From assembly GCA_958295855.1 (NCBI GenBank), contig OY282383.1:252481-316480 (forward strand): 64,000 bases of DNA, given 5' to 3'. This DNA comes from an uncultured Poribacteria bacterium. GTDB taxonomy: Bacteria > Poribacteria > WGA-4E > WGA-3G. The notes under the pieces are model-generated. The model searched no databases, had not been told where the DNA came from, and saw only the letters and a list, made by a program, of their open reading frames with translations. Shown one piece after another: positions 5,630 to 22,003 of the stretch; within the stretch, counting starts at the first letter, position 1; each line of letters starts with the position of its first letter. The translations under genes were made by a program, and so were the position numbers.

Positions 5630-5658
5630 TTGCAAAAGGCGCAGCAATATGGTATTAT
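5630..5658 (+). promoter_or_regulatory. sigma70-like promoter (ttgcaa-17 nt-tattat)
   Basis: -35 ttgcaa at 5630-5635, 17-nt spacer, -10 tattat at 5653-5658. It lies ~40 bp upstream of the riboswitch. Confidence 0.4.
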
Positions 5659-5689
5659 ATAGCCATAACAATTGAATAAACTAACGGTT

Positions 5690-5965
5690 CAGGTGCCGAA
5701 TGTCGGTATCTACCCCTGCAAGCAGGGGTAAATGCCCATTACGGAGAATAGGGAAGCGCGGTGAGAATCCGCCACGGCCCCGCCACTGTGAACGATCTTT
5801 TGCTCTAATGAAAAGTAGTAGGCACGCTCCGCGTGCCGTACACACAAATCGACGGGAAGATTTTGTAGAGCAAACTTTGGCTTGCAACTGGTATCTGCCC
5901 CTGCTTTGCAGGGGTTTAATGCCAATGCCCCAAAAGATCGGAAGTCAGGAGACCTGCCTGCATCG
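5690..5965 (+). promoter_or_regulatory. cobalamin (AdoCbl) riboswitch
   Basis: Core AATAGGGAAGCGCGGTGAGAATCCGCCACGGCCCCGCCACTGTGAACG at 5747-5794 matches the conserved GGUGnnAAUCC / CGCCACUGU blocks. The B12 box AGTCAGGAGACCTGCC sits at 5943-5958. The variable region between them contains a family C repeat (5812-5848) and a family B hairpin (5893-5920). Confidence 0.75.
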
Positions 5966-6364
5966 TGTTTCACGCATCTGCTTTCGCGGGAAAGCAGTGG
6001 AACTGCGCGCAGCAGTATCCTGTCAAATGTAGGAAGGGCGAAGTTAGTCACGCATTGGAAATGCGTGCTGAAGTTCTCCCCGATAGAAAGCATAGAGTCT
6101 GCAGGATCCGCCTCATAATCTGTGTCGCCTTGTCCCCTGTCTTTTCTATTATGAAAGCAGGGGTTTCTTGTTTCATAGGGCATTCACCCCTGCTCGCAGG
6201 GGCAATTGCCAGAAGGAGGATTTCGGCGAAGAAGGTTTAGTCACGCATTTTTAATGCATGCTGAAGTTCGTAGCCGAAATTTACTATTAAAAAGTATGAA
6301 CAGATTTTTTTTCACTTGGCGGCATTTCTCAAAGGCATTCACCCCTGCTCGCAGGGGAAACCAT

Positions 6365-7666
6365 ATGCCAGTGTCGAAATCTTACAGACCGCGCTCGCTC
6401 CTACGATTATGCGCGATGCTCTTCACGTTCCTGGTTAGTTCCGCACTTGCACAAACAGAGATAAGCAGTTACCCCGCAAAGCGGGGAAACATACAAAAGC
6501 AAAACATCGCCGTTATCATCAATGCACTGGATAATGACGACTTAAACATCACCACTACACTTTCAATTATCGATCTCGATGAACCCAATGAGAAACGAGC
6601 TGTTGACGGTGAGATACTCCCTATCGGTGATGTACCAAGTGGGCTCCTCATTCACGGGCATCTTGCCTATATCTCCCGTTTCGAGTGGAGTTCGGTGCCT
6701 CGCGGCAGCATCTTAATTGTCAACTTGGAACGGCGAGAGATTATTGGCGAAATTCCGATCGGATACGGGGCTTACCCACAAAGCCTCGCGCTTGTTAATC
6801 CAAACAAAATGTACGTCACATGCGATAACGTCCATCAGGTACAGGTCATTGACATCCCCAACCGCAATGTGACGAAGATTATTACGCATCCTTCCTTCAA
6901 CAAAACGACCGGCATCACGCTGCTCAACGGAAAGGCATACGTCACCAATTCAGCTTGGGAGTGGGATGCGGAAGCGGGCAAATCTATTTATCATGAGAGT
7001 AGCGTCACGGTGATTGATACCGAGTCAGACACCGTCTTGAAGTCTATTCCAATGCCCATCAATGCAGGTGGCATCCTCAACGACGGCGAATCCACAGTGA
7101 TTGTAAAAACAACTGGCGATTCTAATCTGATTTCTGGGAATCTTGTCCTAATTGACGCGACTACCGATGAAATTGTCAAAACCGTTGCACTCAAGGTGAC
7201 TCCAGGAGCCTTTGCAATCAATTCACACAAACAATTGTTTATTCAGGGAGGATGGCAGAACCCCGGTCTACTTATCTACAACGTGCCGACGCAAAAGTGG
7301 ATTCGAGACAAAAATGACGCACTTGTCGATGTCGGCGGCGGGGCCGGGATGACTTTCGCACCGGACGGAAGCCTTTATATCACTTATCCTGACTGGACCG
7401 GGGGAGGGTTATCTCTCGTTCGTGTTCTGGGGCCAGATGGAACCCTGCGCAAAACCTATCAAGCCGGGCACGGTACCAACAATATTGCAATTGCACAGAT
7501 TGTCCCCCGTCCCGAAGATGTGAACGACGACGGGTTTATCGACCTGGCAGATCTGACAATTGCCAGTCGGTACTTAGGCACCAGCGGCGTTGGAATAATT
7601 GGGGATGTCAACGGCGATGGTATCGTTGACATCCGTGACTTGGTGCGTATTGCCCAGCATATATAG
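6365..7666 (+). CDS. secreted YVTN-type beta-propeller protein with C-terminal dockerin-like repeats
   Basis: Signal-peptide-like N-terminus MPVSKSYRPRSLLRLCAMLFTFLVSSALA. Repeated ...YVTC/YVTN... beta-propeller strands. C-terminal DVNDDGFIDLADL / DVNGDGIVDIRDL dockerin-type Ca-binding repeats. A hairpin repeat encodes SSYPAKRGNI near the N-terminus. Confidence 0.7.
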   Translation: MPVSKSYRPRSLLRLCAMLFTFLVSSALAQTEISSYPAKRGNIQKQNIAVIINALDNDDLNITTTLSIIDLDEPNEKRAVDGEILPIGDVPSGLLIHGHLAYISRFEWSSVPRGSILIVNLERREIIGEIPIGYGAYPQSLALVNPNKMYVTCDNVHQVQVIDIPNRNVTKIITHPSFNKTTGITLLNGKAYVTNSAWEWDAEAGKSIYHESSVTVIDTESDTVLKSIPMPINAGGILNDGESTVIVKTTGDSNLISGNLVLIDATTDEIVKTVALKVTPGAFAINSHKQLFIQGGWQNPGLLIYNVPTQKWIRDKNDALVDVGGGAGMTFAPDGSLYITYPDWTGGGLSLVRVLGPDGTLRKTYQAGHGTNNIAIAQIVPRPEDVNDDGFIDLADLTIASRYLGTSGVGIIGDVNGDGIVDIRDLVRIAQHI

Positions 7667-7905
7667 TAGTAGGCACGCTCCGCGTGCCGTATACAAAAGT
7701 GTAGGAGCGCGAAAAGATTTTACCCCTGCTTTGCAGGGGTAAAATACCAGTGTCACAATCTGGTTACTTTTTAGTTGTAGAGTGCTCCCTGCTAATTGCG
7801 GTTGCATGAGAAATCTCCGACGACATCTTCCACTGCGTCACAACTACAACCAAAACCATTGGAACTAGGCAATAACAAAAGATCAGAAACCTCCGACGAG
7901 AGCTA
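7665..7905. repeat. composite repeat block (families C, B, E tail, A)
   Basis: agtagtaggcacgctccgcgtgccgtatac, then ttttacccctgctttgcaggggtaaaatacc, then ...ctccctgctaattg..., then a family A copy. Confidence 0.8.
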
Positions 7906-7907
7906 CA

Positions 7908-9974
7908 ATGCCGTTAAAACTACAGAACGCAGTCAACACACTAGGCATAGACAAAAAATTGCTATTGCTCCCACTGCTTGTCGTCGCTTGCACAACGGAA
8001 ACGAAAGAGAATCCGTTGGCATGGCAGATTACCTTTTTTTCGCTCGGTGCCAAGGTACAGTTTCACAACGAACCACCGATAGCGCGGATTTCTGCCTTCA
8101 ATTCTGACAGAATGCTGGTTGCACAACTCAATTTCCCTGGACCACCCCGACAGATAGAATCGCTCTATTTTGAATGGCAGGAAGGGGAAACCTATAGATT
8201 TGAAGCGGCTTTGCACACGGGGCAAATCAGTGTTCAAACGGTGACTGCCCCGCGTGTGCATGCCCCCGGCAATTTAGAGATTGCTATCCCTTACGGTGCA
8301 GCGAGGCAAGCGACAACGGATGCAACCGCGTCAAAGGCACTCGTGGTACAAGGGAGCGAAATGACAGCCACGCTCATCGTTACAAACGGCAATGCCCCAG
8401 CTACCTTTGAGGTGGAGCTCTGCTTACCATCTACGCTCGATGTCGTCCAATTGCCGATAGAATGGCAAACCGAGACGAACGGCACCGAGACTTGTCTGTT
8501 TACCGCTGGCACCTTTCGCGTTGCATCCGAGGTCTGGTATCGTGAATTAGTTTTGAAAATTCCCCAGAATGGCTTTAAAAACTTACATCAGACGAGAGCT
8601 ACCACAACGTCACAACTACAGCAGAAACCACCCCAACTAGGCAATAACAAAAAACCAAAAATTGCAGGTATCGTCCGTTTTAAGACAGATACCGCACAAA
8701 CTTGGACGCAAAGGACAGAAGTGCAGTTGCGTTCGGCAACAGTAGCAGAAATCGCCGAGCACCTCTCCATAGAATCTATCCAAATGCCTACGGATGTAGC
8801 CGGCATCCCCCATCTGCAGCGACAAACCGATACCATCTATTACCAGCGCCCTTTGTTCCGTTGGTTAAAAATGCCCCAAACTGATGCCTTTCAACCCATA
8901 GCCTACCAGACCGTGCGGCTCCGCAATCAAGCCCAAGAAACTATCCATGTCGTCGTCTCTTCCATCAACCGAGATACGAAGAGTGGCGCAGCAGTGAGGT
9001 TTCTTGCACCGCCGGATGCCGTGAACGCCGGCACAGACCGGAGCATCAGTTTCGCCAGTTTGCCAGGCGGTGAAGTGACAGCAATTCCGCTGCCCATCTA
9101 CTTTCAGTCCCCCCATAGGAGCGATCTCCGAATCGCGACAGGCGAATACGAACGTGACATTGCAGTGAAGGTATGGGGAAGCGACGCGACAATCCTTCGC
9201 GAACAACGCCCACTCCATCTCATCGTTCCAAACCGACATGCGCTGTTTGTGAGTGGGATAGCAATCATCGCGAGCTGCATCGGGCTGATAGTGCTGCTGC
9301 CCTTTAACGAGCGAAGACACAAGCAGTTCTTCGCTCGTTTCACGACTAAACAACTCATCGTCATCGCCCTATTTGGCACAACGATCTTTGTCGTAGTTAT
9401 CGTGCCGTCAACGCTGTTTCTCAACCTCATCCGCGCCCTCCTTGGGCCCGTCTCTGTCTTGCTGACAGGCTTAATTAATGAGACGCTCTATTACGCGTTG
9501 CTGACAGCGTTGCTAATTTATATTAACGGAGCCCCCAGAGCATCCCGCATTACCAGAACCAAAGTAGTAGGCACGCTCCGCGTGCCGTACACAGCTGTCC
9601 ACAAAAGCCGGCCAACCCACGGTAAAGGGGGTGTCATCTTGCTTGTCTCCGCAGTGCGCTTACTTCTCGGCGGGGTTACGTTCGGGCTTTTCACGCCGAT
9701 GACGATTATCTATACAGGCACGAGCGTCCTCCTGCTTGAGACGGGATTTCTGCTCGTACAAAGGCGCGGTTTGCTGGCGTGGGCACTCGTGCTCGGCATC
9801 TGCGATGCAATCGCCGTCTACGTCGATTTTCAACTCTCTATCCTGTTCTACCGCCTCTTTTACGCCGATTGGTATATTATCCTCCGAATTCTGGTGGAGG
9901 GGTTTGCGTATACCTTTATCGGTGTGCTGCTCGGTGCCAGATTAGGACGCGGCCTCCGGCGCGTAGCCGATTAA
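7908..9974 (+). CDS. lipoprotein with large extracytoplasmic domain and C-terminal ~6-TM region (hypothetical)
   Basis: Lipobox-like KKLLLLPLLVVAC. Likely TTG start near 7959, because the first 17 codons are repeat-derived. C-terminal hydrophobic helices. Family A (8585-8650) and family C (9573-9600, peptide VVGTLRVPYT) repeats lie in frame. Confidence 0.55.
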   Translation: MPLKLQNAVNTLGIDKKLLLLPLLVVACTTETKENPLAWQITFFSLGAKVQFHNEPPIARISAFNSDRMLVAQLNFPGPPRQIESLYFEWQEGETYRFEAALHTGQISVQTVTAPRVHAPGNLEIAIPYGAARQATTDATASKALVVQGSEMTATLIVTNGNAPATFEVELCLPSTLDVVQLPIEWQTETNGTETCLFTAGTFRVASEVWYRELVLKIPQNGFKNLHQTRATTTSQLQQKPPQLGNNKKPKIAGIVRFKTDTAQTWTQRTEVQLRSATVAEIAEHLSIESIQMPTDVAGIPHLQRQTDTIYYQRPLFRWLKMPQTDAFQPIAYQTVRLRNQAQETIHVVVSSINRDTKSGAAVRFLAPPDAVNAGTDRSISFASLPGGEVTAIPLPIYFQSPHRSDLRIATGEYERDIAVKVWGSDATILREQRPLHLIVPNRHALFVSGIAIIASCIGLIVLLPFNERRHKQFFARFTTKQLIVIALFGTTIFVVVIVPSTLFLNLIRALLGPVSVLLTGLINETLYYALLTALLIYINGAPRASRITRTKVVGTLRVPYTAVHKSRPTHGKGGVILLVSAVRLLLGGVTFGLFTPMTIIYTGTSVLLLETGFLLVQRRGLLAWALVLGICDAIAVYVDFQLSILFYRLFYADWYIILRILVEGFAYTFIGVLLGARLGRGLRRVAD

Positions 9975-9975
9975 A

Positions 9976-10040
9976 GTAGTAGGCATGCTCCGCGTGCCGT
10001 ACACAGTTTAAAGTAGTAGGCATGCTCCGCGTGCCGTACA
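9976..10040. repeat. two tandem family C repeats
   Basis: aaagtagtaggcatgctccgcgtgccgtacacag appears twice. Confidence 0.85.
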
Positions 10041-10105
10041 CAGCATAGACCTGTCTTGCCTCCTTACTTCTCCGCAAGGAAAGGCGAAAAAGAGGAACTA
10101 TTACA

Positions 10106-11821
10106 ATGAAGCCAATTCAGTTTTTGAGTCTACTCTGTTTGCTAATCGCGCTGCCCATTGTAGGGGTAGTGCCTTGTGCCTACCCTGCCGATATGAACGT
10201 CTTATGGGTTCGGGCGGGGGCAGTGCTCGAAACAGAACATAAACACAACGGTGAACCCAAAATCAACGTTGCAACCATATCTGAAGGGACAACACAAGCA
10301 TTAACAAATACACCAACAATCCAGCGGCTTGATGCGAAGCGTGTGCTGTTGCAATTTGCATGGCAGCCCAACCAAGCCTATCGGTTTCGCATAAATAATG
10401 CCGTAACAGCGGCGACCGCGCCGCTTAAACCGCTCCCGTATCTCATTCGCACAGTCGAATTAGATGGGCTTCTATCGCTCCTCGAAAATCTGCGGCAGCC
10501 CGCGAAACCAACAGCGATTACCCTAGGGCAAAGTAGCACGCACCCCCCGCGGGTTTCCGTACACAGCCGTCCACAAAATGCCCAGAAACTCGCCATCGCA
10601 ACCGACACCGGGCACCTCGCGATTCTCAATCCGCTCACAGGCGAAACGCTTTGGAACACCCGCATCTCGGAAGGCTACGTCAAGCATCTCGCATTTAACC
10701 ACGATAACACCATCCTCTACATTGGGGAACAGGCAGCGGACGGATTTATCTATGCTTATGCTCTGTCGCAGTCTAAACCAGTACTGCTCTGGAAATACCG
10801 CACCGCCGACGACATTGAAACCTCCACACCGAGTGACCCGGGCAGCGTCTACGCTTATGTTAGTTACCCCGGCGCAGCGTGCATCCGAGTCCTGCCCAAC
10901 GGTGATGCCCTCGTCGCCAGCGTGCATTCGTGGACACACAACGGCACGCCACAGCGGAAGTCACAACTCTACCGGTTTAACGGAAAAACAGGCGATGTAG
11001 CATGGAAATGGCCCAGCGAGGGCGCGTCGCCGAAGGTGCTGCGTTGGTTTGACATAAGTGCTGATGGAAAAACGCTGTCCCTGTTAACAGACAACAGCGG
11101 CAAGGGCAACGGCAGACTCAGCGTTCTTGATGTCGACTCCGGCACAGAACAATGGCACGCCAGTTTTGAACCGCTCACGCCCTATTTTGAAGGTGTTAGC
11201 TTTTGGCGCGGTGTTAGCATGGCACCCGATGGTAAGTTCATCAACGTTACAACGGACGACGGACGTGCCTTCATCTTTGACGCGACTGATTCCGAACCGA
11301 TTTGGCATGAAAACTTGGCGACACCGCTCGAGGTCAGCGGCGTGCCGATTATCGCCACAACTGGCACTATTGGTGCGACAGATGCTGCCGCGCTCTTTGT
11401 CACGGGCGATACATACATCCCCTATCATCTCCAGCAGGGCGCGCAACGTCCTTCCACCGCGCACCCGAACGGGATGACGCTATTCGCCTACTCATGGCGT
11501 GGCGAAAAGGCCTGGCAGTGGAAACTAGAGAATATGCCGCAAGGCTTACGCATTGATGCGAAAGGGCGTTATGCTGCGTTGGCTGTCTCCAAGCGGAGCC
11601 AAAACCCGAACGAGAGTCTACACGGCGTTTCCGTGTTTGACCTGACAGCAGAAGGTAGTGGCTTGGCAAAATACCTCTACACCTACCGTACGGAAGGGCA
11701 ACTCCCCTACGATACGCTTGCCATCAGTGCGGATGGCACGCTCATCGCCATCGTTGAGAGGCCGATTGTAATGCCAGATGAGACGGTGCGTGGGAAAAAT
11801 CGGGTGCATGTGCTGTATTGA
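10106..11821 (+). CDS. secreted PQQ/WD40-like beta-propeller repeat protein (hypothetical)
   Basis: N-terminal signal peptide. Repeated ...ETLWNTRISEGYVKHLAF... and ...GDVAWKW... propeller-like blades. A family D repeat encodes VGVVPCAYP in the signal region. Confidence 0.6.
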   Translation: MKPIQFLSLLCLLIALPIVGVVPCAYPADMNVLWVRAGAVLETEHKHNGEPKINVATISEGTTQALTNTPTIQRLDAKRVLLQFAWQPNQAYRFRINNAVTAATAPLKPLPYLIRTVELDGLLSLLENLRQPAKPTAITLGQSSTHPPRVSVHSRPQNAQKLAIATDTGHLAILNPLTGETLWNTRISEGYVKHLAFNHDNTILYIGEQAADGFIYAYALSQSKPVLLWKYRTADDIETSTPSDPGSVYAYVSYPGAACIRVLPNGDALVASVHSWTHNGTPQRKSQLYRFNGKTGDVAWKWPSEGASPKVLRWFDISADGKTLSLLTDNSGKGNGRLSVLDVDSGTEQWHASFEPLTPYFEGVSFWRGVSMAPDGKFINVTTDDGRAFIFDATDSEPIWHENLATPLEVSGVPIIATTGTIGATDAAALFVTGDTYIPYHLQQGAQRPSTAHPNGMTLFAYSWRGEKAWQWKLENMPQGLRIDAKGRYAALAVSKRSQNPNESLHGVSVFDLTAEGSGLAKYLYTYRTEGQLPYDTLAISADGTLIAIVERPIVMPDETVRGKNRVHVLY

Positions 11822-12072: not shown

Positions 12073-12101
12073 GACAAATTCTGCCATTCAATGTATACTT
12101 A
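12073..12101 (+). promoter_or_regulatory. sigma70-like promoter (ttgaca-17-tatact)
   Basis: ttgaca at 12073-12078 and tatact at 12096-12101, upstream of the 12148 CDS. Confidence 0.4.
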
Positions 12102-12147
12102 TAGAAAGTACAAATGGCTAACACGCATCCAATTAATAGGAATCAAA

Positions 12148-13374
12148 ATGCAACATTTCACAGATGCAGCGTTGCTACAAATTATTGAAGACGACGAATC
12201 TGATCGCGTTGAGTTCAAGGAGTCTTTGTCTGGCAGTGCTCCGAAAGAAATCAGAGAAGCCATCTGTGCTTTTGCCAACGATTTGCCTCGCTACGAAAAA
12301 CCGGGATTCGTTTTCGTCGGAGTGAGGAAAGACAAAACTATTGTAGGGCTACCGGTTACAGATGAATTGCTCCGACAGTTGGCGGATATGAAAACTGATG
12401 GTAATATTGTGCCCCCGCCATCCCTGACAGTAGAAAAGCGTGTGCTGAAAGGCAAAGAAGTTGCTGTAGTTAAGGTGGAACCAACTGACTCACCGCCAGT
12501 TCGCTTCAAGGGCATTATCCGTATCCGTATCGGGCCTCGCCGAGGCATTGCTACCGCGCAGGATGAAAGGATTCTCAATGAAAAGCGTCGGCACAAAGAT
12601 GCCCCTTTCGACATTCAACCGGTTCTCGCGTCAGACCTATCCGATCTCAACCTAAGCCAATTTGAACACGAATATCTGGTGCAAGCCTTTGACCCTGACA
12701 TATTAGAAGCCAATGAACGCACGCTTGAAGAACGCCTAGCGGTAACGAAAATGATTGCCGCAACTGATGAGCCATTCGTGACTGTGATGGGAATCCTCGT
12801 ACTGGGCAAAAACCCACAAGATTTTCTTCCAGGGGCTTACGTGCAATTTCTCAGAATTGATAATATTCAATTAACAGACGATAGGGATATTCGTGATAGC
12901 GAGGCCATCAGGGGAGCAATCCCTGATATCCTCCGTCGTCTGGACGATAAACTGATAGCACACAATCGCACAGAGGTTGATTTCACGACTAGCCCTGTCG
13001 AACAAAGTACAGCACTTTATCCTATCCCGGCGTTGCAACAAATCATCCGGAATGCTGTTATGCACAGAACTTATGAAGCAACTCATGCACCGGTTCGCGT
13101 GTCATGGTTCAACGACCGCGTTGAAGTTTTAAGCCCCGGCGGTGCTTTTGGCGCAATAACGGTTGAAAATTTCGGGCAGCCCGATTTAACTGATTATCGC
13201 AACCCAAATCTGGCAGAAGCGATGAGAATCCTCGGTTATGTGCAAAAGTTTGGCATAGGAATACAGATAACTAGAAGTCTCCTGAAAAAAGCAGGCCATC
13301 CTGAACCAGAATTTGCAATCCTTGATAATTACGTGCGGGCAACCATAAAACTAGCACGCAAGCAAGAAATTTAA
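12148..13374 (+). CDS. AlbA_2 (Schlafen-like) DNA-binding domain protein with C-terminal HATPase-like domain (often misannotated RecG-like)
   Basis: MQHFTDAALLQIIEDDESDRVEFKESL...AICAFANDL...VFVGV is the typical AlbA_2 N-terminus. The C-terminal half resembles the ATPase-like domain that accompanies it. Confidence 0.6.
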   Translation: MQHFTDAALLQIIEDDESDRVEFKESLSGSAPKEIREAICAFANDLPRYEKPGFVFVGVRKDKTIVGLPVTDELLRQLADMKTDGNIVPPPSLTVEKRVLKGKEVAVVKVEPTDSPPVRFKGIIRIRIGPRRGIATAQDERILNEKRRHKDAPFDIQPVLASDLSDLNLSQFEHEYLVQAFDPDILEANERTLEERLAVTKMIAATDEPFVTVMGILVLGKNPQDFLPGAYVQFLRIDNIQLTDDRDIRDSEAIRGAIPDILRRLDDKLIAHNRTEVDFTTSPVEQSTALYPIPALQQIIRNAVMHRTYEATHAPVRVSWFNDRVEVLSPGGAFGAITVENFGQPDLTDYRNPNLAEAMRILGYVQKFGIGIQITRSLLKKAGHPEPEFAILDNYVRATIKLARKQEI

Positions 13375-13415
13375 GGGTATTTTACCCCTGCTTTGTAGGG
13401 GAAACCGATACCACC

Positions 13416-14438
13416 ATGACAATGCCTATTCCAGTTTTAACTTTCTTCAACAATAAAAGCGGAGTTGGTAAGACATCCCTCGTTTATCATCTCGCGTGGA
13501 TGTTATCCGACATCGGCTATCGAGTACTTGCCTGCGACCTCGACCCACAGGCAAACCTCACTAGTATGTTTATCAATGAGGAACGCCTAGAAGTACTGTG
13601 GCCTGACAGCGGCGCGCGAAAAACTATCTATAATGCCCTCCAACCGCTTTTGGACGGAACGGGAGACATTGAGCCACCTCACTTGGAGAATATAACACAC
13701 GAACGGCTAACGCAAGAATTAAGCCTCATCGTCGGCGACCTCATGCTATCTTCAACCGAAGATGAACTTTCGAGCCAATGGCCGGAGTGTTTGGACCGGC
13801 GTCCCCGTGCCTTCCGCGTCATCTCGGCACTATGGCGAATTTTGCAAAGGGCGGCGAGCGACCGGCAATCCAATATTGTCTTGGTAGATGTGGGGCCCAA
13901 CCTAGGGGCCTTGAATAGGGCGGTGCTAGTCGCTACTGATTACGTTATCGTTCCACTTGGAGCCGACCTATTTTCACTCCAAGGGCTGCGGAATCTCGGC
14001 CCGACGCTACAAGAGTGGCGAAAGGGGTGGCAAGAGAGACGTAGCCGCAACCCTATCCCTGATTTACAGATGCCCAATGGATTGATTCAACCGATTGGCT
14101 ATGTGGTGCAGCAACACGGGATTCGTCTGGAACGTCCAATTAAGGCTTACGACAAGTGGGTTAACCGGATGCCGGCAGAATACGCCCGAAACCTGCTAGG
14201 CAATAACAAGGGCCCTTACGCCAAAACACCGGCAGAAGATAAAGAAAATGCCCTCGCTACTGCCAAGCATTATCGCAGCATCGTCCCGATGGGACAGGAA
14301 GCGCGCAAACCGATTTTCCACCTCACCACGGCCGATGGAGCTATCGGCAGCCACGCTGCTGCTGCCCGCACCGCGTACAAGGATTTCAGGATTTTGTCAG
14401 AAAAGATAATCGACAGAATAGGAATTAGGAAGGCGTAA
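13416..14438 (+). CDS. ParA/MinD-family ATPase with C-terminal extension
   Basis: Deviant Walker A FFNNKSGVGKTS, then ACDLDPQANLT, then the ...VDVGPNLGALN...ATDYVIVPLGADLFSLQGL pattern. Confidence 0.7.
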   Translation: MTMPIPVLTFFNNKSGVGKTSLVYHLAWMLSDIGYRVLACDLDPQANLTSMFINEERLEVLWPDSGARKTIYNALQPLLDGTGDIEPPHLENITHERLTQELSLIVGDLMLSSTEDELSSQWPECLDRRPRAFRVISALWRILQRAASDRQSNIVLVDVGPNLGALNRAVLVATDYVIVPLGADLFSLQGLRNLGPTLQEWRKGWQERRSRNPIPDLQMPNGLIQPIGYVVQQHGIRLERPIKAYDKWVNRMPAEYARNLLGNNKGPYAKTPAEDKENALATAKHYRSIVPMGQEARKPIFHLTTADGAIGSHAAAARTAYKDFRILSEKIIDRIGIRKA

Positions 14439-14519
14439 ATATTCCGCAACAAGCGCGTTAATCTATTCGGGCGCGAGCCCTGTGCCTTGCACCACTCTCA
14501 AGCCTTTGCTGTCGATGCA

Positions 14520-14770
14520 AAAGAGAAACATCAGAAATCTCCGACGAGATCTTCCACTGCGTCACAACTACAGCAGAAACCACCAGAACTAGGCAAGAAC
14601 AAAAGTCTGAATCTCTGTGCTAATTGTCGCCGTTGGGTGCAGCTTCCCACGTTCATATTTTGACAAGGAAGGTTTTCGAAATACATCATCAGGAACCTCC
14701 GACGAGAGCTACCACAACGTCACAACCACAGCAGAAACCACCAGAACTAGGCAAGAACAAAAAATTTGAC
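14520..14770. repeat. two family A repeat copies
   Basis: atctccgacgagatcttccactgcgtcacaactacagcagaaaccaccagaactaggcaagaacaaaag at 14530-14600 and 14695-14762. Confidence 0.85.
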
Positions 14771-14877
14771 TGCTAACCAATCCATCAATTGCAGCCTCCA
14801 GGTCCCCGAGGGACGTACCACAGGCAAGTCTAAATCTTCTCAGTCGTTCTCCTAACATGATTGTGATACCCATCAGT

Positions 14878-15111
14878 TTACTTCAAGGAGAGGAAAAGTG
14901 CGATAAGCGCGATAATCGCAGCAGCACAACCTGCAGCGGCACCGACTTTGCCCCACATGGCAGATGCGGCTTCCTCTTTCCCCTCCAGTTTGCCGCGTAT
15001 CCAACCCAACTCTCGACTTACCTGCTGCTTCCACTCTTCCGTTTTCTCTATGAAGTTCTCTGTTTTCTCAATGAAGTTCAAAACGCGTTCTTTGAAGTCC
15101 TCATCAGTCAT
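14878..15111 (-). CDS. small tail-anchored membrane protein (XhlA-like coiled-coil + TM; hypothetical)
   Basis: MTDEDFKERVLNFIEKTENFIEKTEEWKQQV...GAAAGCAAAIIALIALFLSLK. Internal 7-aa tandem duplication and a C-terminal TM helix. Start chosen at the ATG ending at 15111. Confidence 0.35.
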   Translation of the reverse strand: MTDEDFKERVLNFIEKTENFIEKTEEWKQQVSRELGWIRGKLEGKEEAASAMWGKVGAAAGCAAAIIALIALFLSLK

Positions 15112-15398
15112 GATACTTCTCCTGATAACCTTGGGCGGATTGCTTGAATTTGACCGCGGAGCGAATGTGAGACATAAACTCCGCCTGTCTTGCAAGGAAT
15201 TTGGTGTTAGATATACGGTAAACATGAAAAGTGTAGGGGGAGCAAAGGTTTTGTTGTTCCCCCTACCTTTACTGTCTATTCTGTTAGCGTTTCATTGATT
15301 TTACTTGTGTCATTAGTAACCTGACAAATCTAGTTGTTCCTAGGACAGGCAGGTTCGCTAAAAACGACTCTTCCGACAACTTTGGACTAGCCAAATCG

Positions 15399-15980
15399 CT
15401 AAGATTCATCAGTTGTTACAAGCGCTAGTTTGATTAGAAAGGAGAGGACGCTTTCGATATCCTCTGGGCTCACGTCCCAACCATACTCTCCGGCAACCTG
15501 TCGCACCTCTCCTATTGTACTTTTCCCTCTCCAATTGACAATGTAGTGGACTTTTGCCGCGATGGAAAGCTTGTTAAAATCGTTAGAGATCTCCTGGGCG
15601 TTGAGGTTCTGAAGTGTTTTGTCCCATTTCCGGAAGTCAGGTTTTTGCTGGGTAGCCTCCCAGATGTTTTTAGCATCAGGGGTTAGAGAATAAGCGTGCC
15701 TGCGAATTTCTCCGAAAGCGTTTCGTTCAATTGAAGTGGAAGTAAAAGACTCCGTGACTTCATTGAGGACACCATAGTTTACTAGCCCATCTAGGTGCTC
15801 TGCAATGAAACTACTATAAGGTCCGTAATAGTGTGCGGAGAATCCAAAATTTTCTTTAAGCAAAACGCTGAGAAAATAGATTTTCTTTTGGAGGAGGGTT
15901 CTCCCCTGTAAACCTGTCTCTCCTTCCCTCGCAATAACAAGTAGAAGGACATCGACAATGTGCATGTTGTCTCCTTTCAT
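15399..15980 (-). CDS. Panacea-domain (DUF4065/GepA-like) protein, copy 1
   Basis: LLQKKIYFLSVLL...HYYGPYSSFIAEHLD fits the Panacea LQKLLYF...GPV core. The C-terminal 60 aa are nearly identical to the paralog at 22204-22785. The ~120-bp 3' flank (15301-15420) is also duplicated at 22120-22230. Confidence 0.55.
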   Translation of the reverse strand: MKGDNMHIVDVLLLVIAREGETGLQGRTLLQKKIYFLSVLLKENFGFSAHYYGPYSSFIAEHLDGLVNYGVLNEVTESFTSTSIERNAFGEIRRHAYSLTPDAKNIWEATQQKPDFRKWDKTLQNLNAQEISNDFNKLSIAAKVHYIVNWRGKSTIGEVRQVAGEYGWDVSPEDIESVLSFLIKLALVTTDES

Positions 15981-16162
15981 GAAGAACGCAAAATTTTCTG
16001 GATTTCGCTTTCCTCTTTTCCTGAGATTGTTTCGTACGGGGCATAGACTTGAATTGTCTCTAAAGCAGAGGTATCGGCGGAGTGTCTTACGAAAAACAGT
16101 TCACTTGCATAATCGCTCATAGCCCTTGGTTCCGACTGATTCTCGTCAAAAAGGGACAGCAT
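15977..16162 (-). pseudogene. remnant of HD-protein C-terminus (homologous to end of 22782-24179 gene)
   Basis: MLSLFDENQSEPRAMSDYASELFFVRHSADTSALETIQVY... aligns with ...ITIFDENQSEPRAMSDYASELFFARPATDNEASLETVQVY... at the C-terminus of the HD protein. No upstream HD body is present. Confidence 0.45.
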
Positions 16163-16316
16163 TTGTAGCGTATAGACACATACCTTCCCGCCTTAGTCCC
16201 ATAGGGACGGCATGTATATAGAAAACATTCGCTCCTCTTTTTAGCCCCGTAGGGGCGGCATGTATTGGAGGTTCAAACCTGAACATCATTTAGAAGCCAA
16301 AAATTTTACACATCCA

Positions 16317-17933
16317 TCACTCACCGAAGATGTCATCATGTAACTCCTCATAGACTGCCATACCAGGTTGAATGAGTGGGGCGAGAATATCTCTCATGAA
16401 ACTGTCTATGTTGTTTCCCATTCGTGATGGCTTGAAAGCCTCTCGCGCAGCGTGGTGGAGGTCTTGAACAATAGATTTCAGATCAGCGGCATCTTTGACA
16501 ACTTTACGCAATTCCTCAATCTTATCGGGCTTGTTTTCCTTTTCACCTAACTTAGTCAGCACCTCATCATCTATCAGGTAACTTTCAATTGTTCGCCGTG
16601 ACAAAGTGCGGATGCCTTTTTGGGCATACCTCTCTTTTGCCGAATCGGTTGCATAATCCCCGTCTCGGAGCCTGACGATTTTCGCCCTTTTCGCAATTGC
16701 CGTTATAACAGGAATCAGATTTGTGTCAGCGTTTTCTACATCTTTTCTGCCCCCGATGGAAACAAAAAGTGTTTCAGGGTGATGCTTCTCAAAAATCTGA
16801 TTATAGCACGCGGCATCAAAGCCTTCGGAAGCATCTTCGATTTTGCCTTCACAGAGAACAATCTGCTCGGGTACCACTAATTCGGAGAGGTCATCAAGGG
16901 TGACTTCATAGATGCGCGCCCAGAGATTTGAATCCGGCGGAGTGGGTATAAGCGTTACAGGTTCGTCGAAGTCGTGCCTATCAAAATTAAGGAAAACGAC
17001 AGATTTCGGACACTTTCGCCAGAGATCTTGCGCCTTGCGCACCATGCCAATGGAATGGGTCGCAATCCAAAGTTGGGACTTGTCAGGAATAAGGTTGTAA
17101 AGTTCCTCAAGGAGTTGTCCCTGAAGTTTCGTGTGCATGTGGGATTCAGGTTCGTCAATGCAAATGATGGTTTCGTCGTATTCAGCCTTTGTGACTATGA
17201 CATCCAGGAGCAGATCTAGTGCCGCCTTTTCCCCGCTGGCGAGATTCTGATATGAAAACCTCTCGCTTGTCCCTTTGTCAAATTGGAAGAATCCTCCGTC
17301 TGCCGGATGTCCCAAGTTCTTTAAAACCAATTTTGGGTCGTTGAATAGTCTACATATTGCGCCGCGGAGTTCGCCAAGAATCTCGTCTTGAAGCTCGGTT
17401 AAACTTTTCCCGTGTTGTCCGATTTCCGAACTACGCTCTAGCCATCGAGATGCTAACCTCCAATAATTTGATACAACAGCCTCATCATTTTCTATCAGGC
17501 TGACAAGCCGACGTTCCTTTAGTGGATTGTCCCTGTTGATGGTATGCGAATGAGTCATCGTATAGTTTCTGTAGGCGGAACGCGCGCTCACGCATTTGTC
17601 CCATTCATAGTCCGAGTACGGGTCTCCTCCGTGGAATTCTACATTTACGCAATCCGATATAAAACCACCTAAGAATCCAAGAAGGCTTTCTGATGGATAA
17701 TCACTAGATTTGACATAGTACTCCAAGATTTGGTAATAGTCATCCGATGTTTTAGTTTCATCTGTTGGAATGGGTGATAAATAGGTATAGAACTTCAGAC
17801 CCTCAAACACCGAGGACTTTCCGCATCCGTTGGGACCTATCATGACCACGAGCTTCGCCGTTTCAGGTAAGCCTTCAATAGTTAGGTCTGTGAAACGTTT
17901 GAAATTTTTCAGTTTAATCGATTTTATCTTCAT
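16317..17933 (-). CDS. OLD-family ATP-dependent endonuclease-like protein (ABC-type ATPase + C-terminal TOPRIM-like domain)
   Basis: Start at MKIKSIKLKNFKRFTDL. Walker A GPNGCGKSS, Walker B ICIDEPESHMH, then WIATHS. C-terminal VLCEGKIED...IGGRKD...RLRDGDY resembles the TOPRIM E / DxD motifs. The ORF's upstream 76 codons are repeat-derived. Confidence 0.7.
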   Translation of the reverse strand: MKIKSIKLKNFKRFTDLTIEGLPETAKLVVMIGPNGCGKSSVFEGLKFYTYLSPIPTDETKTSDDYYQILEYYVKSSDYPSESLLGFLGGFISDCVNVEFHGGDPYSDYEWDKCVSARSAYRNYTMTHSHTINRDNPLKERRLVSLIENDEAVVSNYWRLASRWLERSSEIGQHGKSLTELQDEILGELRGAICRLFNDPKLVLKNLGHPADGGFFQFDKGTSERFSYQNLASGEKAALDLLLDVIVTKAEYDETIICIDEPESHMHTKLQGQLLEELYNLIPDKSQLWIATHSIGMVRKAQDLWRKCPKSVVFLNFDRHDFDEPVTLIPTPPDSNLWARIYEVTLDDLSELVVPEQIVLCEGKIEDASEGFDAACYNQIFEKHHPETLFVSIGGRKDVENADTNLIPVITAIAKRAKIVRLRDGDYATDSAKERYAQKGIRTLSRRTIESYLIDDEVLTKLGEKENKPDKIEELRKVVKDAADLKSIVQDLHHAAREAFKPSRMGNNIDSFMRDILAPLIQPGMAVYEELHDDIFGE

Positions 17934-18162
17934 ATAATACACTCCTAAACGTTGAATTGGTATGATTGCGGAGGCAACCCCTGTCCAGTCACATACTGCG
18001 CCGCTGGAGCGGAAGAGGGGAGCCTCGGTGCGATGCTCCTCTTTAGCCCTATAAGGGCGACATGTGTATAGTACCGCGGGCCCACCCTCCCCCTTAGCAC
18101 CAGCGGGGGCGACATGTGTCGAATGAAAACCAAAAATTAATGGGAGGATGGAGGTGTTCATT

Positions 18163-18270
18163 GTCTGAATCGCGGATTACGCAGATTACGCGGATTAACG
18201 CGGAGAAGAGCAGAACCCCTCTTAAAATCCGCGTTTATCCGTGTTATCCGTGATAATCCGCGATTCAGAC
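18163..18270. repeat. 108-bp palindromic element with GCGGATTA-type iterons
   Basis: gtctgaatcgcggattacgcagattacgcggattaacgcggag...ctcttaaaatccgcgtttatccgtgttatccgtgataatccgcgattcagac. The 17-bp terminal inverted repeats enclose 3-4 tandem 9-bp units on each arm. Confidence 0.5.
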
Positions 18271-18323
18271 AAAAAAATAATCCGCGCTCGCAACTCAGAA
18301 ATAAGGAAAACGCGCGACTCCCA

Positions 18324-18354
18324 CACACCTACATCCCTGCATCCCGATACGTCC
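18324..18354. repeat. 31-bp direct repeat copy 1 (cacacctacatccctgcatcccgatacgtc)
   Basis: Second copy at 24334-24364 with 1 mismatch. The two copies flank the MTase + Panacea-2 + HD segment. Confidence 0.7.
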
Positions 18355-18360
18355 ACTTAA

Positions 18361-21300
18361 TTATCCCACAGTGTTTTTCTCTCCTTCCACGCCCATCACT
18401 TTTTCCACAATAGCAACTTCATCATCAGTTAATCCATAAAGCGCGTAAATCAACGCATCAATTTGCCGCTCATCCGCGGCGCTCTCTGCCTTCGGGTTTT
18501 CCCATTTCGCTGACAGAAGCTGTTCCACAAGTTCAATAATCGGTTGTTGCTGCTCAGGTGACACAAGCGGAATAGGTATTTTGCCAACATAGTAGTTATC
18601 AAAGTGCATCGTCATGAGTGCAGAGCAAAAGATAAACCGGTGGGCATACCAATTCACTAGCGTGGAGTTGAATAGGGCAGCAATAAAATTCAGGCTAAAA
18701 TTTGGATTCGTGAGAAACGTATTTTCGACAGTGTCAACTCCTAATATATCACCGGTTTTGTCAACGGTAGCCTTTATTTTTTTGTGCGTCACGATATTCT
18801 GAGAGAGGATTTTCGGCTGAAGTAGCGATTGAATTTTCTTATCGGCAGAATCAAGAGTGTCGCGGTTAGCAAACCCTCTCACACCATCAATTCCGTAGCG
18901 GCTTATATTTCTTCCACCAATCACTTTAATTGCACCAGTAGCGTTCAGGAATTTCTGTACCGACAAACCTCGTACACTCTGGGAAATTTCGCTTAGGTGC
19001 GTCCCGATACGATTTAGCTTTAAACCTAACTGAATTTCATCGCTGGACACATCGCATATCCATGCCTCAAACGTTTTCGGATAGTCTTTGGAAATCTGAG
19101 TCGTTTGGGTAAACGTATCATTGACAAACTTCCGAGCTGTATAGAAATCATTTTTAGACTGGGAACTGTAGACGAAAACAACCTGTTCCAATAAGACATT
19201 CTCAAAAGCCCGTTCAACATCAACGAGAACAATGGCTTTTTCTGACAAAGTGAAAGCTAAGCTCTGCCAAGTTTTAGAATACAATAAGGATTTGGGAACT
19301 ATAAATGCGAGGTTACCATCAGGTTTCATCAAATGATTTTTGGCATAATCAATAAACAGGGCGGCACTGTTTGAATTTCGGGTATCTTGAAGGTTGGCTT
19401 TAATCTGCGCTAGTTCAGCTTTCGGAATTTTAGCACCATAAGGGGGATTGCCGATGGCAATGTCAAACCCATCTTTCACACCGAACATCCACTCCGTGTC
19501 AAAGAAATCGGCGACAGCGTTCTGGTCATACGCATCCCAGGTGGCAATTTTCTGGGCCTCTCCAACACTCGCTTTTAACCTTTTCTCACGAACCGTGTAC
19601 GCCTTCTGAAGTTTTTCACGTAATTGATTGCGCGTCCGTTCTGTCTGCAGCTGAGCAACCTGTTCCGCTATCTTGTTTTGCTCACTCCCCACCCAGTGCA
19701 CATGCTGGGCTATCAATGCCTGCTTCAATTGTTCCCGAACGCCTGCCTCTTGGCGGATGTACCGGAGTTTTCGTTGCCGGGTGTTCGCGTTGAAATACCT
19801 CTGGCGGATAGCACCAATTTCAGCGCGTATCTGCCGAATGTTGTCGGTTTCAAGCAACAGCTGCTGGGCGTCTGTATTTAGCCCAATGAGGGTATTGGCA
19901 GCAACGAACTTCACTTCCAGATTGGGCAGCGGCCGAATGCCGTAGTTTGCCGCGCGGTTCTCGTTCGGCACCTGCTCAATGATGAGCGAGATGAAAAAGC
20001 GGAGTTTGGCAATCGTGACAGCGATGGGTTGAATGTCCACGCCATAAATGCCGTTTTGGATAAGGTAGAGCTTGCGTCCGTAGTCGTTGTAGCGGTTCGC
20101 TTCGGAGAACACCTGCTCGATACCCGCAAGTGCAGCTTCGCGGCTTTGCAGGTCAGGAATTGTTTCTGCCTGCTCGAGTTGTCGCTGTTTCCAGCGTTCA
20201 TTCTGCGGATCCAGTTTTTGGAGAATCAGCACCAGTTTATTGAGAATGCCCATCGGGAAAGCACCAGAACCGACTGCCGGATCGATGATTTTGAGTTCGT
20301 CTATCGCTTGAATCATTGACATGATTTCATCTTCATAGATGAGGTGTTTATTGGGATTATCTTCCGTACCTTGCCGGTCATAGGCAAGGAGATCTTCGCG
20401 GAGCCTGCCCTCCAAGCCCTCCCCGTGGCCGTCGGAGGGTTCAACCTTCTGAAGGAAATAGGCGATGAGCGCCTCGTCTACCATGTAATCAACTATCTGC
20501 CGTGGGGTATAGTAGGAGCCGGTGGCTTTGCGCGCGGTGGACTGTGTTTCCGGATTAGACGCGCCGAGCAGATTCTCAAACACCTGCCCGAGCAGTTCCG
20601 GGTCGAGGGCGACTTCTTGCTCAATGGGCGTGTTTTCCTCTACCGTGAACTTATAGCGGGAAAAGAGCGGAAAGATGCCGTTTTCTTCGTCAAAGAAGAG
20701 TTTTGTCGGGACGTGTAGTTTCCGCCTGTCGTTTGGATTGTCAGTGAAACAATCAACGCGCGCCCCACCATCACCGGGCGCCTCAAACGTATCCAGGCAG
20801 TCGAACAACCCGCCGTTAACAAACGGCACCTGCTTGAGGTACTCCAGAAATGCGTCTGCATCTTGGAGGAGATCCGCGTAGCGATATTTGCTCGCATCTC
20901 GATGATCTGGGTTATTGCGCCTACTAAAGACGCGTTCACTTATCGGCGTATTGAGGGTGGCAAAAAAGAGGTTTTGGAGGACAGCCTGGTAGTAATCGGA
21001 ACGCTCTTCGGTAGACGCGAGCTGCGCTCGCCACTTGTATGTTACCCCGCTTTGCGGGGAAGCATACCTGTCCCCGGTAGAACTGGCATGGGGCTCGCTA
21101 TCTCTCAGAAACGCTTGCGCGCCTTCTCTCTCAAAAAGTGCCGGAGGCACCAACCCCTTTTCCTTCAGAAACCAGATAAAGAGGAGCCGTGTTATCAGCC
21201 GGATGCCCTGCATCGCATTCGCTGCATCCGGAAATCTACAGGCCGCCTTTGCCCAATCATACCATTTCTCAAGGTCTCGGTAAAAACGGCGGTTGAGTGC

Positions 21301-21972: not shown

Positions 21973-22003
21973 GTCAGGCCTGCTTTTTCCACTAAAACGG
22001 AAA

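Follow-up and report, generated by a model that had tools for sequence, protein, structure and literature searches.

The window analysed here, a 64,000-nucleotide stretch of DNA from an uncultured member of the Poribacteria, holds a regulatory leader followed by three genes on the plus strand, whose products we refer to as P1, P2, and P3. The features of this locus are:

5630–5658, plus strand: sigma-70-type promoter TTGCAA-17-TATTAT with extended TG, from a promoter scan
5674–5975, plus strand: cobalamin riboswitch aptamer (RF00174, 64.4 bits), core and B12 box intact
~5702–5740, plus strand: CCCCTGC..GCAGGGG hairpin element of family D4, in a hairpin loop near the aptamer 5′ end
5815–5843, plus strand: D1 hairpin repeat GTAGTAGGCACGCTCCGCGTGCCGTACAC, in place of the 5′ half of a peripheral aptamer sub-helix
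~5884–5930, plus strand: second CCCCTGC..GCAGGGG element, family D8, in the aptamer's variable peripheral extension
5978–5997, plus strand: P13-like hairpin CTGCTTTC-GCGG-GAAAGCAG, invariant in aligned leaders
6044–6076, plus strand: D10 hairpin element, in the variable loop of the ATCCTGT...GCAGGAT platform helix
6134–6173, plus strand: intrinsic terminator CCCCTG(T)CTTTT...GAAAGCAGGGG followed by TTTCTTGTTT, conserved in nearly all of 85 loci
6179–6290, plus strand: repeat-filled spacer from terminator to ancestral start codon, from alignment with relatives
6296–7666, plus strand: P1, secreted seven-bladed BtuG-like beta-propeller with C-terminal type I dockerin, from profiles, AlphaFold, and Foldseek
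7908–9974, plus strand: P2, lipobox (Cys28) protein; periplasmic part of about four beta-sandwich domains, then a C-terminal membrane domain
10106–11821, plus strand: P3, an exported PQQ_2/WD40-like beta-propeller that also has an N-terminal domain, conserved partner of P2 across phyla

An earlier note on this DNA had placed an AdoCbl-type riboswitch core and B12 box at 5690–5965, behind a sigma70-like promoter, and both elements were recovered. The Rfam model RF00174 significantly matched 5674–5975 of the plus strand over its full length (model positions 1–189; 64.4 bits against a gathering threshold of 31.5, E = 1.2e-13), the sole Rfam match when the whole 64 kb was searched, and the core GGTGAGAATCC...CGCCACTGT and the B12 box AGTCAGGAGACCTGCC are both found in the window. 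This RNA is a genuine cobalamin riboswitch with an intact core. Orthologous copies scored 63–102 bits, with 96.6–102.1 bits in the three relatives free of repeat insertions (L003–L005), and the B12 box together with the core segment GGTGAGAATCCGCCACGGCCCCGCCACTGTGAACGAT is invariant in the window and in L001–L005. Both promoter hexamers are kept in L001 and L003–L005.

The aptamer is followed by an expression platform, in which the P13 loop GCGGG is complementary to the L5 sequence CCCGC (~5780–5784). The P13 hairpin is invariant across 53 aligned poribacterial leaders, which were too conserved for covariation support to be obtained, and the terminator with its U-tract recurs in nearly all 85 poribacterial loci, with compensatory stem changes in some (e.g., CCTCTGC/GTAGAGG). 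Folding energies were −11.3 kcal/mol for the P13 hairpin and −14.4 kcal/mol for the terminator, and cross-pairings between the two (−12.5 and −13.3 kcal/mol) were comparable to the hairpins themselves. Because the minimum-energy fold of the platform contains P13 and the terminator together, we can only infer the fold of the RNA in its ON state. Judging from the leader sequence, bound corrinoid would let L5 kiss the P13 loop and lock P13, upon which the terminator would form and transcription would end before P1; in the ligand-free state, the P13 and terminator arms, which are nearly identical, would exchange strands, supply the antiterminator fold, and allow read-through. The earlier note had considered that a terminator followed by an independent promoter between 5965 and 6365 might separate the switch from the genes; the terminator proved to be the riboswitch's own platform, and a promoter scan of this interval found no promoter-like site on the plus strand.

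In 85 of 85 related loci, the riboswitch profile found a match ~200–450 nt upstream of P1, on the same strand as the genes. The set, all of it from Candidatus Poribacteria, covers 80 species-representative genomes of the 104 species genomes in which a P1 relative is encoded. P2 and P3 follow P1 in every poribacterial locus except two and those on truncated contigs, and L003 retains the same riboswitch-P1-P2-P3 unit in spite of an unrelated upstream neighbourhood. Comparison of these sequences indicates that the operon of promoter, aptamer, terminator, P1, P2, and P3 is ancestral to, and conserved throughout, the phylum. The window contains no EcfT or ECF ATPase gene, nor do the flanks of the 85 poribacterial operons out to 7 kb, and the operon includes no TonB-dependent receptor; a candidate orphan ECF module is present in L169–L171, whose taxonomy is provisional.

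The three gene products are of the kinds originally described, namely a propeller with a Dockerin_1 domain, a protein with a lipobox and a polytopic C-terminal part, and a propeller of the PQQ_2 type. The suggestion that the first might be a BtuG-type protein was strengthened by its AlphaFold model (pLDDT 88.8), for which the top 16 Foldseek matches in the PDB were all BtuG1, BtuG2, or BtuG3 (E = 2e-18 to 2e-14; entry identities from PMC10404256 and bioRxiv 10.1101/2024.02.16.580637). TM-scores on the target were 0.77–0.82 for 15 of these and 0.43 for the 663-residue BtuG1–BtuH fusion chain 8blw_B, as against 0.62–0.68 for generic YVTN/YncE propellers. BtuG1 was also the best non-dockerin match of the P1 profile in the PDB (E = 1.4e-8), nearly equalled in that search by a generic archaeal YVTN propeller. 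The match of P1 to DUF5074 (Pfam PF16819) lies under the gathering threshold (16.4 against 27.2 bits), while 17 of 17 members of its family match this domain at E < 0.1 (best 5.3e-7). None of the five mappable BtuG1 ligand contacts is identical in P1 (Q139, R141, R244, E249, and Y290 correspond to Y, Q, T, N, and W), and members of the P1 family show high conservation at these positions. The dockerin (Pfam PF00404, 27.7 bits against gathering 22.9; residues 384–433, nt ~7514–7663) is accompanied by profile matches (E = 1e-8) to dockerins of cellulosomes that fall in two segments, the duplicated Ca-binding segment. The signal peptide ends in ..SSALA-QT, of signal peptidase I type, and P1 has no lipobox. 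The modelled fold supports P1 as a BtuG-like propeller, which may bind corrinoids and would be held by its dockerin, not by a lipid anchor.

In the P2 model (pLDDT 88.5), the membrane domain (aa ~440–688, nt ~9225–9971) has the six-helix fold of ECF S components, with which the earlier note had proposed to compare the transmembrane tail, though BtuM and CbrT were absent among the P2 matches listed; YkoE, RibU, and FolT-type S components scored above CbiM. At the sequence level, P2 matched no described S-component family in Pfam, NCBIfam, or the PDB (to E 10), and the membrane-domain profile matched neither CbiM nor any PDB chain with the threshold relaxed to E 10. The family comprises 373 representatives at E 0.001 or better. 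P2 would be the membrane translocator, an S component with a ~400-residue periplasmic stalk of beta-sandwich domains, presumably taking a corrinoid as ligand. P3 matches only generic WD40/PQQ propellers; it may be a periplasmic propeller accompanying P2 as an accessory or hand-over protein, and a corrinoid could be its ligand as well.

Outside Poribacteria, the P2 homologues of Desulfatibacillum, a Planctomycetota MAG, and Ca. Oleimmundimicrobium share their loci with genes for a P3 homologue, CbiQ/EcfT, and a fused ECF ATPase that scores above the cut-off of TIGR04520/04521. Across 83 surveyed loci, the neighbours of P2 homologues include the ATPase in 65, CbiQ in 54, and P3 in 53. Pfam places the T component of these systems in CbiQ; from NCBIfam, it is matched solely by the cobalt T-component model TIGR02454, with a score of 43.9 bits that falls under the cut-off of 111.8. 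Genes for TonB-dependent receptors and CobN-like proteins often adjoin these systems. The receptors match models for haemin, siderophore, and B12 receptors, in each case under the cut-off, and are not clear BtuB equivalogs. CobN-like chelatase genes occur in 10 of the 83 loci and in the methanogen locus L172, which was fetched separately, and some of the operons are bordered by genes for CbiK/CbiX chelatases. A cobalamin riboswitch lies 5′ of P2/P3 systems in at least seven independent non-poribacterial loci (RF00174 in L095, L122, L127, L151, L157, and L159; RF01482 in L163), and many other P2 operons have none. In L122, L151, L157, and L159, the order is riboswitch, TonB-dependent receptor, P1-like propeller, P3, P2, EcfAA′, and EcfT, and the P1-like protein of these operons aligns with the P1 profile at an hhalign probability of 88% (E = 2.9e-6).

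Aligning the window to the uninvaded relatives L003–L005 located three repeat insertions in the aptamer and one in the expression platform, bearing out the claim that repeat elements had invaded the riboswitch. The elements at 5702–5740 (a 36-nt insert in the Rfam alignment) and 5884–5930 are missing from those relatives, the D1 repeat occurs seven times in the window, each time on the plus strand and between 4936 and 10013, and the D10 insertion site varies in length and sequence among relatives. The further claim that repeats make up the ~400 nt between aptamer and first gene holds for 6179–6290, whereas 5976–6173 is conserved expression platform with one inserted hairpin. The repeat-filled part, which differs between the window and L001, contains a C-hairpin (6179–6205), the ancestral Shine-Dalgarno (SD) sequence GGAGG (6215–6219), and a hairpin element (6220–6280) with a nested D10 copy; relatives have GGAGG-N6-ATGAAC directly 3′ of the terminator.

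Such remodelling invites the view that the switch is a relic in this genome, uncoupled from the genes or leaving them silenced by repeats in its periphery and in the region from terminator through SD to start. The drop in Rfam score from ~100 to 64 bits, one peripheral sub-helix without its 5′ arm and another without its 3′ arm, an ancestral SD now 76 nt from the ancestral ATG at 6296, and dN/dS values against the nearest relative that are only moderately low (0.23–0.48, from few substitutions) would fit this view. However, core, B12 box, L5, P13/L13, and terminator are identical or near-identical to those of uninvaded relatives, only five substitutions separate the window from L001 outside the repeats in 5630–6172, and aptamer length varies naturally from ~185 to 310 nt in the phylum. 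All three frames are intact, with every coding insert (6334–6364 and 6460–6498 in P1; 8588–8661 and 9559–9594 in P2, whose start codon lies inside repeat D3) in frame and in low-confidence model loops; a repeat supplies P1 with an SD-like GGGGAAACCAT-ATG at the alternative start 6365, and the promoter scan detected no new plus-strand site 3′ of the terminator. Since the repeats lie in loops and spacers, riboswitch and genes are probably still functional, and we regard decay as unlikely, although the remodelled aptamer periphery could have altered or weakened the ligand response. It is likewise improbable that B12 synthesis is what the operon serves, by importing cobalt or a different metal ion, with P2 in the role of CbiM/NikM in an ECF system of the CbiMNQO type and feedback on cobalt supply coming from the riboswitch. 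Cobalt transporters are commonly under B12 riboswitch control, and the CbiQ assignment with its sub-threshold cobalt model, like the chelatase genes beside some homologous operons, points the same way. Against this stand the higher scores of vitamin-type S components on P2, the dissimilarity of its membrane domain to CbiM, the corrinoid-binding BtuG proteins as closest structures to P1, and the btuB-btuG arrangement with which complete systems start; nor would ion uptake be expected to need a 400-residue stalk and two propellers. We consider it very improbable that the proteins handle another tetrapyrrole (haem, or metalloporphyrin for metal salvage) or serve a B12-independent surface role, such as dockerin-cohesin adhesion, induced under B12 limitation. 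The CobN-like genes beside TonB-dependent receptors and P2 systems recall the arrangement of the CobN-like HmuS in the Bacteroidota haem-uptake locus, and the ambiguous receptor matches and riboswitch-free operons are in keeping with such roles, but a cobalamin riboswitch heads every poribacterial locus, elsewhere the family is under two different classes of B12 riboswitch, P1 finds its specific best structural match in BtuG proteins, and domain searches of P1, P2, and P3 turned up nothing related to haem or adhesion. Metals or other tetrapyrroles are possible substrates for the wider P2 family because CobN-like genes occur in some loci and many operons are riboswitch-free.

We therefore favour, as the likely reading, a B12-repressed operon for corrinoid capture and import, built on an undescribed ECF S-component family. 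The earlier proposal of a distinct B12-capture and uptake module is supported by the authentic riboswitch, its linkage to the genes in every poribacterial locus, and the BtuG-like fold of P1. Corrinoid sufficiency inside the cell would switch the operon off. In other phyla, the P2-P3 pair comes with a dedicated EcfAA′ ATPase and EcfT, in most cases preceded by a TonB-dependent receptor; the poribacterial system may draw on an energising module encoded elsewhere, or P2 may work alone. For this phylum of sponge symbionts, the operon is most likely an undescribed B12 capture and import system.

The leader resembles transcription-terminating RF00174 riboswitches with an L5-L13 kissing loop in its full-length model match, B12 box, conserved core, complementary L5/L13 loops, and intrinsic terminator just before the SD, and differs in the mobile-repeat insertions of the window lineage (three in the aptamer, one in the platform) and in controlling genes other than btuB, cob/cbi, metE, or nrd. 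P1 shares with the BtuG lipoproteins of Bacteroides (BT1954, BT2095, BT1490; DUF5074) the seven-bladed propeller, as best structural match by a clear margin, and control by a B12 riboswitch, and the non-poribacterial P1-like gene lies directly 3′ of a TonB-dependent receptor as btuG follows btuB; however, identity is only 17–20%, below the DUF5074 gathering threshold, a signal peptidase I-type signal and dockerin take the place of the N-terminal lipid anchor, the BtuG1 ligand-contact residues are substituted, and Poribacteria have no adjacent BtuB. P2 resembles ECF S components, among which the B12-related BtuM and ECF-CbrT and the structurally solved YkoE and RibU are the closest comparison, in having homologues encoded with EcfAA′ and EcfT, but it has no detectable sequence similarity to known S components, carries a lipobox signal and ~400 residues of beta-sandwich domains before its membrane domain, is paired with a ~570-residue beta-propeller protein, and is unlinked to an ECF module in Poribacteria. 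Finally, L122, L127, L151, L157, L159, and L163 parallel BtuB-BtuFCD operons in combining a riboswitch, an outer-membrane receptor, and an ATP-driven inner-membrane importer, whereas their inner-membrane step is of the ECF type (P2, P3, and EcfAA′T) in place of the type II ABC importer BtuCD with BtuF.

The cobalamin riboswitch of the window and the three genes downstream of it, encoding a secreted propeller protein (P1), a lipobox protein (P2) and a second exported propeller protein (P3), probably form a B12-repressed operon for corrinoid capture and uptake, built on an undescribed family of S components. A distinct B12-capture and uptake module had been suggested in the earlier note, and the riboswitch linkage, the BtuG-like character of P1 and the ECF-type context of P2 and P3 favor that reading. 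The features concerned are listed here.

Features of the operon, its leader and the inserted repeats
5630-5658, promoter TTGCAA-17-TATTAT with extended TG
~5702-5740, CCCCTGC..GCAGGGG hairpin element in a hairpin loop near the aptamer 5' end
5815-5843, GTAGTAGGCACGCTCCGCGTGCCGTACAC hairpin in a peripheral sub-helix, whose 5' half it replaces
~5884-5930, second CCCCTGC element in another peripheral helix, whose 3' arm it has displaced
5978-5997, P13-like hairpin CTGCTTTC-GCGG-GAAAGCAG
6044-6076, 33-nt hairpin insert in the variable loop of the helix ATCCTGT...GCAGGAT
6134-6173, intrinsic terminator CCCCTG(T)CTTTT...GAAAGCAGGGG then TTTCTTGTTT, -14.4 kcal/mol
6365-7666, + strand, P1 ORF, propeller with type I dockerin (PF00404 above gathering)
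7908-9974, + strand, P2 ORF, lipobox cysteine and polytopic C-terminus, no family match
10106-11821, + strand, P3 ORF, PQQ_2-type propeller
6334-6364, 6460-6498, 7877-7957, 8588-8661 and 9559-9594, in-frame repeat inserts in P1 and P2
333, 1647, 5143, 35300 and 63178, examples of the repeat copies found across the window, with families D5 and D9 throughout

The AdoCbl riboswitch claimed from the sequence was confirmed by Rfam, where RF00174 matched at 5674-5975 (+) with 64.4 bits against a gathering threshold of 31.5 (E 1.2e-13, full model covered) and was the sole family above threshold in a scan of the whole window; the core and B12-box motifs quoted for it are present. The promoter proposed ahead of it was also located, and the gene content described downstream, three plus-strand ORFs encoding propellers and a lipoprotein, agrees with our domain searches. 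Four related loci, with P1 identities of 94%, 71%, 65%, and 58%, all had P1-P2-P3 with RF00174 immediately upstream, including L003, whose upstream neighborhood is wholly different (a tRNA array and SRP RNA), and the repeat-free relatives scored 96.6-102.1 bits. P1 had 322 homologues, the annotated ones all labelled Candidatus Poribacteria, and a one-genome-per-species scan detected a P1 relative in 104 genomes, of which 80 were retrieved, all Poribacteria. Given that a riboswitch sequence profile matched 85 of 85 poribacterial loci on the gene strand, and that P2 and P3 followed P1 in all of them except L028, L034, and three truncated contigs, the riboswitch-P1-P2-P3 unit is ancestral and phylum-wide. 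This linkage is the strongest evidence on hand that the RNA would regulate P1-P2-P3. In a divergent relative (L111, 3176-9158), the unit lies directly 3' of queG, encoding the cobalamin-dependent epoxyqueuosine reductase, and its P1 is shorter (378 aa) with no dockerin match.

The expression platform of ~190 nt was very strongly conserved, even though the P1 proteins of the phylum are only ~55% identical. Read from the sequence, the aptamer loop L5 (CCCGC) and the P13 loop (GCGGG) are complementary, and a kissing loop between these two is the classical arrangement of cobalamin riboswitches. The P13 arms closely resemble the terminator arms, with possible cross-pairings of -12.5 and -13.3 kcal/mol. 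Ligand binding would thus lock P13 and let the terminator form, making an OFF switch, and strand exchange without ligand would allow read-through. The minimum-energy fold of the platform held both P13 and the terminator and was uninformative in the search for an antiterminator. Covariation gave no support for the platform, the leader being too conserved, with compensatory changes in three pairs only; some loci carried such changes in the terminator stem. The earlier note had counted against its reading any terminator with an independent promoter behind it. The terminator we found belongs to the platform of the switch itself, and a promoter inside the repeats was rejected given that the plus strand of 5965-6365 has no promoter-like site. 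Likewise, the intergenic D1 and C hairpins were rejected as plus-strand terminators, since a T-run comes after none of them on that strand.

P1 is, by its profile and predicted structure, a putative distant relative of BtuG that may work like BtuG, in line with the BtuG-type first propeller anticipated for this locus. The best PDB sequence matches of the window protein were BtuG1 structures (E 2.5e-4), a 71-sequence P1 profile had BtuG1 as its best non-dockerin match (E 1.4e-8 over blades 2-7), and Pfam DUF5074 was touched by 17/17 P1 relatives tested. For the AlphaFold model (pLDDT 88.8), the 16 best PDB matches were all BtuG2, BtuG3, or BtuG1 (E 2e-18 to 2e-14; entries identified from PMC10404256 and bioRxiv 10.1101/2024.02.16.580637), with a TM score on target of ~0.8 for 15 of the 16, compared with 0.62-0.68 for generic YVTN/YncE propellers. 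In contrast to BtuG, P1 scores below the DUF5074 gathering threshold, has a signal peptidase I-type signal without a lipobox, and ends in a dockerin, and at the five mappable ligand-contact positions of BtuG1 it has different residues, polar or aromatic ones, that vary little or not at all across the P1 family. P1 is therefore not filed as a DUF5074 member. These matches show BtuG-like proteins outside Bacteroidota.

P2 had no match in Pfam, NCBIfam, or PDB sequences at E 10, its separated domains included, and sequence and profile searches with P3 returned generic WD40, PQQ, and BamB-like propellers only and did not connect P3 with 4r5o, a propeller of the Bacteroides B12 locus. An exhaustive profile search extended the P2 family to 373 representatives, including proteins of Desulfatibacillum aliphaticivorans (Dalk_4067), a Planctomycetota MAG, and Ca. 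Oleimmundimicrobium. In these three, the P2 homologue adjoins a full-length P3 homologue of ~570 residues (27-32% identity, E 1e-56 to 5e-102), a fused double ATPase scoring above the curated ECF-ATPase cut-offs, and a CbiQ/EcfT gene. Across 83 loci, P2 homologues neighbored the ATPase in 65, CbiQ in 54, and P3 in 53. From these neighborhoods and its modelled fold, we predict P2 to be a stalked ECF S component of an undescribed family, and P3 to be its partner. Links to B12 were also present outside Poribacteria: RF00174 preceded the P2 operons of L095, L122, L127, L151, L157, and L159 (73-132 bits), and the separate AdoCbl class RF01482 preceded that of L163. The operons of L122, L151, L157, and L159 read riboswitch, TonB-dependent receptor, a P1-related protein of ~400 residues, P3, P2, EcfAA', and EcfT, the P1-related protein matching the P1 profile with an hhalign probability of 88% (E 2.9e-6).

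An alternative is that the operon imports cobalt. Some operons of the family lack the riboswitch, and some carry CobN-like chelatases, such as the operon of the methanogen Methanococcoides, ordered P3-like, CobN, P2-like, ATPase, CbiQ. The DNA covered for L086-L088, L169, L171, and L172 gave no riboswitch match. Given that the riboswitch is not universal and CobN-like genes are present, the wider P2 family may also handle other tetrapyrroles or metals. P2 and P3 homologues with ECF genes lie beside CobN-like chelatases in both L172 (1-8894, Methanococcoides) and L086 (1-14021, Desulfatibacillum), the latter also with a TonB-dependent receptor and CbiK/CbiX, which hints that these transporters may be connected with putting metals into tetrapyrroles or taking them out. 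With BtuG proteins as the closest structures to P1, we consider cobalt import improbable for this operon and favor corrinoid uptake.

A second alternative, bearing on the regulation step only, is that the switch has decayed in this genome. In favor of decay are the repeats that invade its leader. In the Rfam alignment, two large inserts remained unaligned, one of 36 nt, corresponding to the first CCCCTGC element, and one of 135 nt. In relatives, GGAGG-N6-ATGAAC, with the P1 start, directly follows the terminator, whereas in the window ~110 nt of repeats are wedged among the terminator, the Shine-Dalgarno sequence (6215-6219), and ATG 6296, and a further in-frame repeat brings ATG 6365 with an SD-like GGGG. 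Against decay, mapping of the insertion sites by leader alignment with uninvaded relatives revealed that the core, the B12 box, and the rest of the sequence to 6030 are identical or nearly so, and the aptamer periphery seems naturally plastic, as aptamer length ranges from ~185 to 310 nt across the poribacterial loci. Every reading frame is intact even though repeats provide the annotated start codons of P1 (ATG 6365) and P2 (ATG 7908), and the peptides from in-frame inserts fall in low-confidence loops of the models. We therefore regard a decayed switch as unlikely, and a B12-repressed operon as the better reading. The dN/dS against the closest relative, 0.23-0.48, is below 1 but comes from few substitutions, with little power at a dS of 0.03-0.06.

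At least four short repeat families are very abundant in the window, with 22 CCCCTGC..GCAGGGG hairpins, 30 D5 copies, 24 D9 copies, and 7 D1 hairpins, and the CCCCTGC, D5, and D9 families are all but missing from 83 other poribacterial loci. Between the window and its closest relative, the elements filling 6173-6285 differ despite a dS of ~0.04, which indicates a recent, lineage-specific burst. The locus is a natural experiment on the tolerance of a riboswitch and coding genes to mobile repeat insertions. In several poribacterial loci that are only distantly related, a 27-nt hairpin, ATTTCGGCGAAGCTTGCAAGCCGAAAT, occupies exactly the space from GGAGG to the P1 start codon (window 6220-6280, where it holds a nested second element, and the leaders of L059, L076, L080, and L081); either repeated insertion at a single site or an old polymorphism could account for it. 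Directly 3' of the operon, where relatives have other genes, a defense-like island (12091-27755) encodes Schlafen/AlbA_2-HATPase_c_4, a ParA-like ATPase, an AAA_15/AAA_21 OLD-like ATPase, an Eco57I-type restriction-methylase fusion, an HD protein, and a PLD-SNF2 helicase.

We found neither EcfT nor an ECF ATPase in the window or within the 7-kb flanks of 85 poribacterial operons, and a TonB-dependent receptor was absent from the operon in all 85 loci. A search with P2-associated EcfT gave no match labelled Poribacteria. It retrieved an orphan module in L169-L171 (5319-7855), composed of a fused EcfAA' (560 aa) and CbiQ/EcfT (284 aa) without an S component, beside two genes for B12-binding radical SAM proteins. 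The chromosomes that carry it are large and come from MAGs of the ENA series to which the poribacterial MAGs also belong. Its DNA resembled Poribacteria in tetranucleotide composition (r 0.73-0.81, against 0.18 for unrelated loci), a likeness that is compositional only, making this module a candidate partner of P2 on Poribacteria-like DNA by that measure. P2 may draw on a shared module of this kind or work by itself, as has been proposed for BtuM (PMC6072759).

The abstract of that paper describes the membrane proteins importing vitamin B12 as unidentified for most prokaryotes, and poribacterial B12 import has been conjectured only via TonB systems (PMC5087111). Searches of open-access literature turned up no mention of this operon, of Dalk_4065-4068, or of ECF systems with BtuG-like or propeller partners. 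The P2 family, for which Pfam and NCBIfam have no model, is a candidate B12 importer that riboswitches of two classes, in several phyla, link to the vitamin. It offers a concrete, testable answer to the question of corrinoid supply in Poribacteria, the dominant sponge symbionts; Desulfatibacillum aliphaticivorans (Dalk_4067 operon) and Methanococcoides are cultivable hosts with complete versions, which brings experiments within reach. It is quite possible, and we tentatively propose, that P2, P3, and EcfAA'T constitute an undescribed, widespread ECF-type importer of corrinoids and perhaps other tetrapyrroles, present in Poribacteria, Planctomycetota, Desulfobacterota, gut and marine bacteria, and methanogenic archaea, with a long periplasmic stalk on the S component and a dedicated beta-propeller. 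This importer would replace BtuFCD after a BtuB/BtuG-like outer-membrane pair in Gram-negatives, and in Poribacteria the BtuG-like propeller would be dockerin-tethered, with a cohesin-like domain of P2 itself as a possible anchor, and the S component would rely on an unlinked ECF module.

The usual place downstream of a btuB-btuG pair is taken by btuFCD. In L122, L151, L157, and L159 the outer-membrane pair is alike, and the P2 system sits where btuFCD does. A stalked S component with a propeller partner would extend the known ECF architecture. The riboswitch itself is ordinary, and the module that it regulates is a new variation on BtuG-like capture combined with ECF-type import.
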